Source of the DNA: a virus
Lineage: Duplodnaviria; Heunggongvirae; Uroviricota; Caudoviricetes
Strand: one strand, 5' to 3'
Length of the DNA stretch: 9,836 nt
Virus record (IMG/VR): IMGVR_UViG_2563366976_000007
Shown here: one piece after another, positions 6,891 through 9,836 of the stretch
Position numbering within the stretch: the stretch's first letter is position 1
Layout of the letters: the number at the start of each line of letters is the position of its first letter
Notes under the pieces: model-generated
Seen by the model: the letters and a program-made list of their open reading frames with translations, nothing else
What the model was told of the DNA's origin: nothing
The model's database searches: none
Program-made: the position numbers and the translations under genes

Positions 6891-6966
6891 GCATATGAGG
6901 TTTTTGGATGCACTGGCGTTCGTGATCGGGATAATCATTTCATAATTTGCAACATAACTCAATATC

Positions 6967-7016
6967 ATTGCATAAAATGCAATTCTGATTATAATCAGGA
7001 CTGGATAAACATCCAG
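6967..7016 (+). promoter_or_regulatory. Candidate regulated promoter of the head operon: three adjacent perfect palindromes overlapping -35, -10 and +1
   Basis: ATTGCAT-AAA-ATGCAAT (6967-6983), CTGATTATAATCAG (6985-6998) and CTGGAT-AAAC-ATCCAG (7001-7016). Consensus -10 TATAAT (6990-6995) lies inside the middle palindrome; -35-like TTGCAT (6968-6973) with a 16-nt spacer. Confidence 0.5.
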
Positions 7017-7051
7017 TTATGATTTTTTTAGTCGAAGAGGAATTTCTTACT

Positions 7052-7258
7052 ATGGCTGAAGAGAAAAAAGGCGGTGTTTCGGTGTACATAAGCCCCGAAA
7101 TCGTGGAGGTGCTCAAGCAGCGCCACAAAAAAAACTATGAAGCTGGCGTTGCGGCTGGACTGGATCCGCTGATGACGCCGGAGCCGTCGATAGGTTCACT
7201 TGTACGCTCTTATTTACTTGCGGCGCTTGGGATGCATAAAAATTATGGGGGTGAATAA
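7052..7258 (+). CDS. Hypothetical small protein (68 aa), first gene of the head operon
   Basis: ATG 7052 preceded by GAAGAGGAA; alternative in-frame ATG at 7019 has no SD. Its stop overlaps the capsid ATG (TAATG at 7256-7260), so it is translationally coupled to the major capsid gene. Confidence 0.6.
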   Translation: MAEEKKGGVSVYISPEIVEVLKQRHKKNYEAGVAAGLDPLMTPEPSIGSLVRSYLLAALGMHKNYGGE

Positions 7259-8313
7259 TGGCAGGCAAAGCAACGGCACTTAACACTAACCAGCTTTTCA
7301 TGTACCTGAATCGCGGGGATATTGCGGATTTTAAATTCAGCCCTCTGTTTACCACGCTGTTTTTCCCGAACGTGGCGACATTCAGCACGCAAAACATCAT
7401 GCTGGATACCCTGGACATTGAAGAAGTCACCATGTCGGCGTTTTGTTCGCCTATGGTGGGTAGCCAGGTTCAGCGCGATAAAGGGTACGAAACCAGCACA
7501 ATCAAACCTGGCTACATGAAGCCAAAGCACGAAATCGATCCAACGAAAACCATCATGCGCATGGCTGGAGAAGATCCGGCACAGCTTAACGACCCTACCT
7601 ATCGCCGTATGCGCCTGATTACTGGCAACATGCGCCGCCAGATAAACGCCATTAAGGCACGCGTGGAATGGCTGGCGGTGAATGCGGTAACGACCGGAAA
7701 AAACATCATTGAGGGCGAAGGCATAGAACGCTATGAAATCGACTGGAAAATACCGGAAAACTGCATCATAGAGCAGGCCAAGGGTAAAAAATGGTCCGAG
7801 CAGGATAAAGACATGCACGACCCAATCTATGACATCGAGCTTTATGCTGATCAGGCTGGTTGCCCCGCAAACGTCATGATTATGGGCGCTGAGGTATGGC
7901 GAACGTTACGCAGCTTTAAAAAATTCCGTGAGCTGTACGATCTTTCCCGTGGTTCAGAGTCCGCCGCAGAGCTGGCCTGTAAAAACCTGGGCGAAGTGGT
8001 GAGCTTTAAAGGCTATCTGGGCGATATTGCCCTTATCGTCTATTCCGGCAAATACGCCGACAGCGACGGCACAGAAAAATATTTCCTTGAGCCTGATTTG
8101 CTTGTCCTGGGCAACACCAACAATAAAGGGCTGGTGGCCTATGGTGCGATTATGGATCAGGACGCAGTAAGAACGGGGGCAACGCAAAACATGTACTACC
8201 CGAAAAACTGGATTGAGGACGGAGATCCGGCGATTGAGTACGTGCAGACGCACAGCGCACCGCAGCCGGTTCCGGCAGATATTCGCAAATTTGTTACTGT
8301 CAAAATTGCTTAA
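7258..8313 (+). CDS. Major capsid protein, lambda gpE-like
   Basis: 351 aa. Multiple blocks match lambda gpE as recalled: FKFSPLF..LFF (lambda FKFDPLFLRLFF), PGYMKPKHEIDP (PGYVKPKHEVNP), DPTYRRMRLITGNMR (DPAYRRRRIIMQNMR), VSFKGYLGDIALIVYSGKY (VSYKGMYGDVAIVVYSGQY), LVLGNT..GL.AYG.I.D, YPKNW...GDPA.EY...HSAP. Length also matches (gpE 341 aa). Confidence 0.85.
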   Translation: MAGKATALNTNQLFMYLNRGDIADFKFSPLFTTLFFPNVATFSTQNIMLDTLDIEEVTMSAFCSPMVGSQVQRDKGYETSTIKPGYMKPKHEIDPTKTIMRMAGEDPAQLNDPTYRRMRLITGNMRRQINAIKARVEWLAVNAVTTGKNIIEGEGIERYEIDWKIPENCIIEQAKGKKWSEQDKDMHDPIYDIELYADQAGCPANVMIMGAEVWRTLRSFKKFRELYDLSRGSESAAELACKNLGEVVSFKGYLGDIALIVYSGKYADSDGTEKYFLEPDLLVLGNTNNKGLVAYGAIMDQDAVRTGATQNMYYPKNWIEDGDPAIEYVQTHSAPQPVPADIRKFVTVKIA

Positions 8314-8324
8314 CGGGGGATTCT

Positions 8325-8660
8325 ATGGACACTCCATACATTGAGTTATTTGCAGGCAGTCAGCAGGTCGCCACGACGCTGGTACATTTTGCCGCTGATG
8401 CTGGCGTTATCCAGGAATTTACCCCGCTGATGCTGGCGGACAATGGCGAGTTTAAGCCGTGGGATGGTCAGGAATCTGGCAAGGCTGTTTATCTGACTTC
8501 GTACCCCGTGGACACGTCAAAGCAGAAATCAGCACAGTGTTACAAGACGGGGATATTTAATATCGCCGCCGTAAACTGGCCTGAGAGCGCCGACACTGAC
8601 GCGAAAAAATGCGCCGCCTTTGCGGGTTCTGGCGTATCCGTTCAGCCGCTGGCGCGATAA
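8325..8660 (+). CDS. Head decoration protein, lambda gpD-like
   Basis: 111 aa (lambda gpD 110 aa). Motifs TPLMLAD (gpD TPLMLD), WDG, CYKTGIF (FYKSGTF) and WPESADTDAKKCAAFAGS (WPEAASDETKKRTAFAGT). GGGGGA SD 4 nt upstream. Confidence 0.75.
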   Translation: MDTPYIELFAGSQQVATTLVHFAADAGVIQEFTPLMLADNGEFKPWDGQESGKAVYLTSYPVDTSKQKSAQCYKTGIFNIAAVNWPESADTDAKKCAAFAGSGVSVQPLAR

Positions 8661-8672
8661 GCAGGGGAAACG

Positions 8673-9086
8673 ATGGCAACGAATGAAAGCATCATGGCGC
8701 TACCGCTGGCGAGTAAATTTAAAGCAGAAGCGCGGGCAATGGCTGACAGAGGTTTATCAACCTACGAGGCCGTATATCAACTCAACAAACTGGAAGAACA
8801 GGACAAGCCGCGCGCTGATGCGATTATGGCGCTTCATGAACATAACGACTATCAGCCGCTGTTACGTGCAATGGCAAACGTGCCATGTATTAGCGTCGAT
8901 AATGCTCGTGAAATCCTGAACATGACCATAGAGCAGGAGCGCCCAAAGGTTGCACCAGAGCTTACCGCAGCCTTTGAAAACTTTATGGACATGCACAGCC
9001 CGCAAGCCGTATCAGCTGGCATGGCGTACGATGGCAGAAACCAGGGCGATGACGGCGACATCGATCGCATACTGAAAACCATCTGA
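8673..9086 (+). CDS. Hypothetical protein (137 aa) between the decoration gene and cos
   Basis: AGGGGA SD 4 nt before ATG. Acidic, probably helical protein. Function unknown; by position it could be a packaging or head-completion factor. Followed by a terminator and the cos site. Confidence 0.65.
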   Translation: MATNESIMALPLASKFKAEARAMADRGLSTYEAVYQLNKLEEQDKPRADAIMALHEHNDYQPLLRAMANVPCISVDNAREILNMTIEQERPKVAPELTAAFENFMDMHSPQAVSAGMAYDGRNQGDDGDIDRILKTI

Positions 9087-9091
9087 GACAA

Positions 9092-9116
9092 GGCCGGAGA
9101 AATCCGGCTTTTTTTT
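9092..9116 (+). terminator. Rho-independent terminator
   Basis: GCCGGA-GAAA-TCCGGC hairpin followed by T8. Third copy of the same terminator motif. Confidence 0.75.
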
Positions 9117-9148
9117 ACGGGTCCTTTCCGGCATATGGACCCGTTACG

Positions 9149-9160
9149 GGGCGGCGACCT
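9149..9160. other. lambda-type cohesive end site (cosN), GGGCGGCGACCT
   Basis: GTTACGGGGCGGCGACCTCGCGGTTTTTCGCTATTTATGA matches, with one mismatch, the lambda cos junction and left-end sequence as I recall it (…GTTACG|GGGCGGCGACCTCGCGGGTTTTCGCTATTTATGA…); identity is lost after ~35 nt. Lies ~135 nt upstream of the Nu1-like gene, as in lambda. Confidence 0.8.
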
Positions 9161-9293: not shown

Positions 9294-9836
9294 ATGAAAT
9301 CGCACCTGATGAACAAAAAAAACATGGCTAAAAGCTGCCGTGTAAGTGCGACAGCGTTCGACAAGTGGGGAGTAACTCCCGTTGAGCGTAAAGGCCGTGA
9401 GGCGTTTTATGATGTTGCCAGCGTGATAGACAATAGGGTTAACAATGCAATTAGCCAGCTTACAAACGACAAAGGCGATATTGACGATGATGAACTATTA
9501 CGAGTCAGGATCAGATTACTGACAGCGCAGGCGGAGGCGCAGGAGCTTAAAAACGAGCGCGAACGAGGCGACGTTATTGATACAGGGTTTTGCCTGTACG
9601 CGCTTTCAAAGCTGGCGAGCCAGATTTCTTCAATCATGGACAGCATCCCGCTTACTATGCAAAGGAGCTTTCCACACATTACCCCAGCCATGCTGGATGG
9701 GCTTAAAAGGGAAGTGGTTAAAGCCTGTAATGCCAGTGCCAGAGTTGCCGACAACCTCCCACAGATACTGGCTGATTACTTGAAAGAAACAACCGGAAAC
9801 GTACCGGAAAAGTTGCAGCAGAATAAAGATAAGTAA
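9294..9836 (+). CDS. Terminase small subunit, lambda Nu1-like
   Basis: 180 aa (Nu1 181 aa). Strong block similarity to lambda Nu1 as recalled: LLTAQAEAQELKNERERGDVIDTGFCLYALSKLASQISSIMDSIPLTMQRSFP (Nu1 LTRAQADAQELKNARDSAEVVETAFCTFVLSRIAGEIASILDGLPLSVQRRFP) and C-terminal LKREVVKACN...LADYLKE (LKRDIIKAMN...LSEYIEQ). The N-terminal ~50 aa are more diverged. Start could be ATG 9294, 9309 or 9324; none has a clear SD. Stop TAA is at the window end. Confidence 0.85.
   Translation: MKSHLMNKKNMAKSCRVSATAFDKWGVTPVERKGREAFYDVASVIDNRVNNAISQLTNDKGDIDDDELLRVRIRLLTAQAEAQELKNERERGDVIDTGFCLYALSKLASQISSIMDSIPLTMQRSFPHITPAMLDGLKREVVKACNASARVADNLPQILADYLKETTGNVPEKLQQNKDK

Follow-up and report, generated by a model that had tools for sequence, protein, structure and literature searches.

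The closest described system to the locus considered here is EcCICFT073 of Escherichia coli, an island of the classical type among the Gram-negative phage-inducible chromosomal islands (PICIs). For this island, helper-dependent induction and high-frequency transfer are known, and it was reported to be packaged in phage-length DNA (PMC6092414). The same study lists c1499 as a putative capsid protein and c1500 as a head decoration protein, and its supplement gives a length of 68 aa for the product of c1498 and of 137 aa for that of c1501. In a later survey, a capsid gene was found in 21 of 29 reference Gram-negative PICIs. A second described group are the capsid-forming PICIs (cf-PICIs) such as EcCIEDL933 (preprint 10.1101/2022.09.08.507074), which have the int/alpA/rep backbone, bring their own capsid protein and use helper tails. 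Here, we analysed a 9,836-bp stretch of viral DNA (IMG/VR record IMGVR_UViG_2563366976_000007; the whole stretch is referred to as the window). Positions 7052-9086 of the window carry a block of four genes, encoding a 68-aa protein, a capsid protein of the lambda gpE family, a decoration protein of the gpD family and a 137-aa protein. The block as such is already known, as c1498-c1501 of the published EcCICFT073; new here are the annotation of the c1501-type proteins as scaffold homologues, a conserved control region in front of the genes and evidence for selection acting on them. The genes of the block, and the segment of the last one that carries the new annotation, are as follows.

7052-7258, + strand: 68-aa open reading frame (ORF) with an ATG start and a TAA stop at 7256-7258; orthologue of c1498.
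7258-8313, + strand: major capsid protein of the lambda gpE family, 351 aa; orthologue of c1499.
8325-8660, + strand: head decoration protein of the lambda gpD family, 111 aa; orthologue of c1500.
8673-9086, + strand: stand-alone scaffold homologue without a protease domain, 137 aa; orthologue of c1501.
8808-9035, + strand: residues 46-121 of the 137-aa protein, homologous, by profile-profile and multiple alignment, to lambda Nu3 121-191 (equal to the C-terminus of gpC).

Gene order, protein lengths (68, 351, 111 and 137 aa), the TAATG junction between the first two genes, the upstream control region and the downstream cos site are the same as in EcCICFT073. The two islands differ in that EcCICFT073 carries RppA (c1503, 144 aa) where the island here has a 180-aa small terminase (TerS) of the Nu1 family, in an extra 74-aa gene that precedes the operon here, and in the chromosomal site; in addition, the 68-aa allele has diverged from that of CFT073 (dN 0.20). 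An initial annotation, made from the letters of the window and their open reading frames, had described the 68-aa ORF as overlapping the capsid gene by TAATG, with the gpE and gpD homologues between the two small ORFs and the 137-aa ORF behind the decoration gene. All of this holds: the A at 7258 is common to the stop codon of the 68-aa ORF and the ATG of the capsid gene, and the 137-aa gene begins 12 nt past the decoration stop codon, preceded by an AGGGGA ribosome-binding site. For the 68-aa ORF, the start at 7052 is favoured over an ATG at 7019, as the N-terminus M-[AS]-[EK]-E-K is conserved among the E. coli and Salmonella homologues. The context of the island was read from the genome of E. 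coli 23CRST038, to which the window segment searched (2.4 kb) is a 100% match and in which RefSeq annotates the identical four coding sequences (CDS).

Five independent results of sequence comparison identify the 137-aa protein as a homologue of the C-terminal tail of Nu3 and gpC. A search against PHROG profiles matched columns 494-567 of the 583 columns of phrog_53, 'head maturation protease' (E 7.3e-10), and also phrog_1999. When 50,697 phage records were searched by tblastn, only two matches were obtained, both to the extreme C-termini of gpC-type protease-scaffold frames located directly upstream of gpD/gpE genes; one is in Gifsy-1 (annotated; about 70 C-terminal residues), the other in phage 204576 (recognized from its ORFs; E 1e-5). 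Among 1.84 billion representatives scanned exhaustively with HMMER, no more than eight proteins matched, a set of fragments together with one 41%-identical relative and a 195-aa protein (E 7e-5) that has three repeats, as are found at gpC C-termini. A colinear multiple alignment was obtained between the 137-aa protein and the C-terminal ~90 residues of lambda Nu3. Correspondingly, hhalign paired its residues 46-121 with Nu3 121-191 at a probability of 96.8% (E 2.1e-10). The initial annotation had seen no likeness of either small protein to lambda Nu3, C, FI or W; this has to be revised for the 137-aa protein with respect to Nu3 and C, and stands for W and FI, to which there is no BLAST similarity.

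With regard to its architecture, the 137-aa protein consists of helical repeat units (at about 5-38 and 49-84), the tail motif FExFMxxHSPxAVxxG and a short C-terminal helix. The homology of its residues 46-121 is to the last ~70 residues of lambda Nu3/gpC, and likewise of phage 21 gp5/gp6 and Gifsy-1 STM2605, and takes in a helical repeat unit as well as the tail motif. The 137-aa protein has two such units, compared to three in the 195-aa protein and in the gpC-like C-termini of Gifsy-1 and phage 204576. The gene is free-standing and located 3' of the capsid and decoration genes, while Nu3 is nested in the protease gene upstream of D and E; the order E-D of the satellite genes is itself the reverse of the lambda order D-E. 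Unlike gpC, the protein has no protease domain, and the element has no protease gene. A structure model was all-alpha and of low confidence (pLDDT 61.6), a fold search with it gave generic helical bundles only, and direct sequence searches of the 68-aa and 137-aa proteins against the PDB yielded nothing. The 137-aa family is, as far as these searches indicate, narrow and satellite-specific. A natural 93-aa variant, found in an individual genome, lacks part of the repeat region, so that the first unit runs straight into the second; this has the appearance of a deletion.

Lambda Nu3 and gpC are read in one frame and end in the same C-terminus. For this reason, the tail kept by the 137-aa protein would be the part that targets both lambda proteins inside the gpE shell, and the 137-aa protein may accordingly bind the capsid protein of the satellite. 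Its homology to a lambda-type scaffold tail makes it plausible as an assembly factor. The initial annotation had proposed both small proteins as modifiers of capsid assembly or capsid size. For the 137-aa protein a role in assembly is thus tenable; the 68-aa protein has no sign of a role as capsid factor, and there is no positive evidence for a redirection of capsid size.

An alternative assignment would make the 137-aa protein a head-tail connector and the 68-aa protein a gpW-like adaptor. It would agree with the name 'phage head-tail connector protein' that NCBI gives to many members of the 137-aa cluster (P0001, P0004, P0007, P0008 and others), and lambda W, too, has 68 aa. Ordinary connector homologues, which the initial annotation had considered as the opposing outcome, did not emerge from the searches: there was no NCBIfam or Pfam match at E values up to 1 or 10, no BLAST similarity to lambda W, FI or FII, and a significant profile homology to the Nu3/gpC tail instead. 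We regard this assignment as extremely improbable. As there is no NCBIfam or Pfam support for it and the profile comparison points to the scaffold tail, the connector name looks like a propagated misannotation. We also dropped a W-like identity of the 68-aa protein, considered for its equal length, and an FI-like identity of the 137-aa protein, considered for its similar length and position; neither pair shows sequence similarity.

The two proteins between the small ORFs are clear in their family. The capsid protein matched Phage_cap_E (PF03864) with 170.7 bits at a cut-off of 22.9 (E 5.7e-50), is 96% identical to PDB entry 3BQW ('putative capsid protein of prophage', CFT073) and aligned to lambda gpE structures (7VI9) with an E value of 1e-81; its identity to gpE is 43.7%. 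The decoration protein matched HDPD (PF02924) with 63.5 bits at a cut-off of 29.1 (E 2.6e-17) and phrog_49 (E 7e-27), and is 37% identical to gpD. No phage record contained a capsid protein more than 47% identical to that of the satellite, which by this comparison belongs to a satellite-specific lineage distinct from every phage record. The alignment of the capsid protein with gpE and with the Gifsy-1 homologue is colinear; the sole departures are two insertions of 4 residues each in the N-arm (3-6 and 20-23) and a single residue at position 54. In capsid proteins of the HK97 fold, the N-arm contacts the scaffold inside procapsids, and in lambda it helps to bind gpD. As the only differences in length between the capsid protein and gpE sit in the N-arm, the satellite capsid, scaffold and decoration proteins may have become adapted to each other.

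The four genes are framed by signals that set them apart from the rest of the element:

6820-6895, + strand: two tandem intrinsic terminators, which close the upstream replication/PerC unit and insulate the capsid operon.
6933-7029, + strand: conserved non-coding control block of 97 bp, from the comparison of E. coli and Salmonella elements.
9090-9117, + strand: intrinsic terminator at the end of the operon, a 9-bp stem AAGGCCGGAGAAATCCGGCTTT followed by T8.

The first of the upstream terminators is the hairpin AGCCGGAGCAATCCGGCT with a T run (6820-6843), the second a perfect 14-bp inverted repeat (6852-6865 / 6877-6890) followed by TTTT; both are conserved in CFT073. With two terminators upstream, one downstream and genes that are tightly spaced or overlapping, the block is an insulated transcription unit of its own. 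A terminator hairpin of the form AGCCGGAG(A/C)AATCCGGCT with a T run occurs three times in the window (6456-6473, 6820-6837 and 9092-9109), each time at a module boundary: after PerC, after the 74-aa gene and after the capsid operon.

The control block is 80% identical to its counterpart in a Salmonella PICI, compared to 67% for the nucleotides of the capsid gene, 46% for the third codon positions and 33-41% for the immediate flanks. It contains a direct repeat ATCATTnCATAAnnTGCAA at 6934 and 6964, and a palindrome ATTGCAT-AAA-ATGCAAT (6967-6983) that lies over a poor -35 element, TTGCAT (6968-6973). The outer pair of this palindrome is changed on both sides in Salmonella, from A..T to G..C. 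A perfect TATAAT at 6990-6995 is located within a second palindrome, CTGATTATAATCAG, which spans the -10 region, and a hairpin ACTGGAT-AAAC-ATCCAGT (7000-7017) with a T run follows. The candidate TATAAT promoter was picked by eye, as the sigma-70 scan missed it owing to the poor -35 element. The pattern suggests a candidate promoter/operator under the control of an activator or repressor, for which the 68-aa protein, AlpA, PerC or a protein of the helper are candidates.

The 68-aa protein itself matched no Pfam or NCBIfam family and had no phage homologue, and its relatives were found in E. coli and Salmonella only. Its structure model (pLDDT 73.7) has an extended stretch at 8-14 and two helices; a ribbon-helix-helix pattern fits by eye, although the signal is weak, and Foldseek and PDB profile searches returned nothing. 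That it is a DNA-binding ribbon-helix-helix protein of the CopG/Arc/MetJ kind has, in our estimate, somewhat less than an even chance, and it may regulate the operon. Another apparent deletion product of an individual genome is a 79-aa protein in which the N-terminus of PerC continues into the final ~27 residues of the 68-aa protein.

The block is common and is kept intact. At a query coverage of at least 80%, it was found in 595 of 5,426 complete E. coli genomes (11%), including O157:H7, O55:H7, O145 and Nissle 1917, and every full-length match listed carries the four CDS annotations. In seven elements that we compared, with a synonymous divergence of up to ~0.2-0.8 per site, all four genes are intact, of equal length and free of stop codons. 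The median dN/dS among these seven was 0.10 for the capsid gene, 0.17 for the decoration gene, 0.23 for the 68-aa gene and 0.32 for the 137-aa gene, indicating that the four genes are under purifying selection. Salmonella PICIs have the genes for the 68-aa, capsid and decoration proteins in the same order, at protein identities of 56%, 68% and 52%, respectively. Since no phage capsid protein is more than 47% identical and the Salmonella PICIs keep the gene order at 52-68% identity, the module appears to be a satellite lineage of long standing whose genes co-evolve, as opposed to one captured recently. In the Salmonella PICIs with the module, a protein of 77-79 aa takes the place of the 137-aa one (9764-9997 in element L011, 9727-9966 in element L013). 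In L011, moreover, a second gene for an integrase (6291-7286) is located just upstream of the module, and L013 has two tandem RppA homologues after cos (10157-11025; 32% and 60% identity).

These data bear on whether the block might be inert or spare cargo, that is, the leftover of an ancestral head module or a spare capsid gene for PICIs that interrupt gene E of their helper. PICIs inside helper gene E do exist and carry a capsid gene of their own, and no phenotype has been found for the block so far. Against this stand the strong purifying selection on four genes whose frames are all intact, a control block conserved across genera and a lineage distinct from every phage record; moreover, the island here lies between cspD/yljB and clpS and not within a prophage. 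We consider inert cargo very unlikely. The scaffold homologue, the cross-genus control region and the purifying selection together argue that the block is a working unit and not debris.

What could such a unit do? We propose, with about an even chance of being right, that the block is a self-contained capsid-shell kit, comprising a gpE-type capsid protein of the satellite, its gpD-type partner on the outside and a scaffold-like partner on the inside, headed by the small 68-aa protein as a possible DNA-binding regulator, with everything else coming from a lambdoid helper. Upon induction of the helper, the operon would be transcribed from its own promoter with the weak -35 element. The scaffold-like 137-aa protein would then act as a chaperone in the assembly of the satellite capsid protein to shells or capsomers, and the satellite decoration protein would stabilise the expanded shell. 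The lambdoid helper would supply portal, protease, large terminase, head-completion proteins and tail, and the adjacent cos site together with the Nu1-like small terminase would direct the satellite DNA into the heads. The products of the operon may thereby enter particles. The cf-PICIs have their int/alpA/rep backbone in common with the island here but go further than this, as they encode portal, protease, connectors, HNH and both the small and the large terminase, whereas the island here has only the shell proteins, the scaffold homologue and the small terminase.

Several observations weigh against this proposal, first of all the genetics of EcCICFT073. In the c1501::tetA version of that island with its native helper, deletion of c1499 or c1500 had no effect on transfer and failed to lift the interference with lambda, the authors state that they saw no phenotype for c1499, and an island without c1499 transfers well with lambda and phi80 (PMC6092414). 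The capsid and decoration genes are thus clearly dispensable for transfer in the laboratory. When the genes located after ori were expressed singly, lambda plaquing remained normal except for c1503 (RppA), and the results with phi80 were similar. Furthermore, neither portal nor protease nor large terminase is encoded in the module, and any shell would therefore rely on cross-compatibility with a helper whose shell components are 37-47% identical. Finally, the 77-79-aa protein at the fourth position of the Salmonella modules matched the Nu3 tail in the right region of the profile with 8.6 bits, which is not significant; as this match is so low, a scaffold homologue at the fourth position is secure in the E. 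coli elements only.

The same experiments speak to the possibility that the block serves interference or defence, with the capsid protein and the scaffold tail acting as poison subunits that spoil lambdoid heads, for example by displacing gpC. Interference with the helper is common among PICIs, and competition is conceivable, as the tail kept by the 137-aa protein is common to Nu3 and the protease gpC. Yet none of the post-ori genes apart from c1503 lowered lambda plaques, with the limit that they were expressed one at a time, and lambda plaques were restored by deletion of rppA but not by that of c1499 or c1500. Poisoning of helper heads is, in our view, distinctly unlikely.

How far the published tests address the proposed shell kit depends on the islands that were used. 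Taken at its name, c1501::tetA would stand for a broken module in every published test. We dropped this idea for that island, as the primers in Table S6 of PMC6092414 place the marker directly after the stop codon of c1501, by which the four genes are kept and the island is enlarged. The lambda and phi80 lysogens listed in Table S7 all carry c1499::cat, an island whose capsid gene is replaced by cat, and later work used the cat island as well. The DNA-size result with lambda was thus most likely obtained without the capsid gene of the satellite; the paper is silent on the island used, and we infer this from the strain table. Because the listed lysogens carry c1499::cat only, the lambda DNA-size test probably says nothing on the intact module. 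These details bear on the often-repeated claim that EcCICFT073 is packaged in phage-sized capsids.

This matters in particular for the question of capsid size. The initial annotation had argued that a satellite of ~10-15 kb needs a head smaller than the T=7 head of lambda, and the satellite capsid protein together with a truncated scaffold might force the assembly of heads below the T=7 of the helper, so that each would take up one satellite genome and exclude the helper genome. A capsid paralogue and a scaffold-tail homologue are indeed the two types of protein responsible for this in SaPIs, the pathogenicity islands of Staphylococcus aureus. SaPI1 CpmB is a small helical satellite protein with a scaffold-like, coat-binding end. 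The 137-aa protein resembles it, and the satellite capsid protein resembles SaPIbov5 Ccm, a paralogue of the helper capsid protein, by working logic only; there is no sequence relationship in either case, and searches of Pfam, PHROG, NCBIfam and the PDB gave no match to Sid, CpmA/B, Ccm, TcaP or Rcm. Beyond the SaPIs, the related PmCI172, which has a capsid homologue, makes small heads, and among the lambda and phi80 lysogens of the strain table there is none whose module is intact, which leaves the test that found phage-sized DNA in lambda probably confined to the c1499::cat island.

Other data argue the opposite. With the native helper and all four genes intact, the c1501::tetA island gave no monomer band (PMC6092414), and deletion of c1499 or c1500 made no difference to transfer. 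Small heads are not needed either: four copies of the 11.28-kb island amount to 45.1 kb, or 93% of the lambda genome, and the archetype is reported to be packaged in phage-length DNA. The changes in the E-loop or A-domain that the initial annotation had suggested looking for in a comparison with gpE are absent as far as insertions and deletions are concerned. For the E. coli family, in contrast to the size factors of the SaPIs, the available tests for small capsids are negative or uninformative. Redirection of capsid size would be a special case of the shell kit; it lacks positive evidence and is unsupported, if less firmly excluded than the literature implies, and we consider it unlikely.

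Returning to the shell kit as such, E. coli PICIs of this type might be 'half capsid-forming', in that they would build their own shell on the portal of the helper, possibly with a lower T number suited to a single 11.3-kb genome. We give this only a small chance. Such behaviour would have been missed, because the experiments with lambda and phi80 used an island in which the capsid gene is replaced by a marker. Should the products of the operon turn out to be part of particles, islands of this type would link satellites that take over complete heads with others that make heads themselves. This would also affect the engineering of PICIs as delivery vehicles, as the usual chassis has its capsid gene replaced by a marker.

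The remaining features of the element place the block in a classical island:

1-1239 of the window: integrase.
3394-5226 of the window: D5-type primase.
9149-9160, + strand: cosN, lambda-type cohesive end, an exact GGGCGGCGACCT (0.01 expected by chance); context, outside the operon.
9294-9836 of the window: Nu1-family TerS, 180 aa, from a profile match; 34% identical to lambda Nu1.

According to the annotation of 23CRST038, the window lies inside an island inserted at the cspD/yljB-clpS site. The edges of the island are a 17-bp direct repeat AATGGTGTAGTTAATTT, corresponding to the att cores, with 11,282 bp between them. Its genes are, in order, a tyrosine integrase, an AlpA-type regulator, a D5-type primase, a single-stranded DNA-binding protein (SSB), a PerC-family protein, the four-gene head block, the lambda-type cos, the Nu1-family small terminase and a further 93-aa ORF, which is the sole gene between TerS and attR. 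No gene for portal, protease, connectors, large terminase, tail or lysis was found in the window or the rest of the island by ORF analysis, profile searches or RefSeq annotation. With its integrase, AlpA and primase, its att repeats and its cos site and TerS, the island is a classical Gram-negative PICI of the EcCICFT073 type, and the layout matches that of the islands described by Fillol-Salom et al. in 2018 (PMC6092414) and 2019 (PMC6739421).

Downstream of cosN, the first 22 nt are nearly identical to the left end of lambda, after which the sequences diverge (cosB). The slot 3' of cos is taken by the 180-aa TerS here and by RppA (144 aa) in EcCICFT073 (2660-3094 of the corresponding locus, L002). 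Related islands thus exchange a true TerS homologue for an Rpp hijacker in one and the same slot, while cosN stays identical and cosB diverges. About 660 bp between the 137-aa and the 93-aa genes are without an annotated gene in two related E. coli islands (L009 and L010; 3686-4348), at the place where TerS or Rpp is located elsewhere. An Rfam scan of the whole window found no credible RNA family; the only hit, with an E value of 0.44 for a miRNA model from plants, is due to chance and falls into 5230-5510. This segment is AT-rich and non-coding (GC about 0.39) and lies directly 3' of the primase gene, which is the reported position of the replication origin in such islands.

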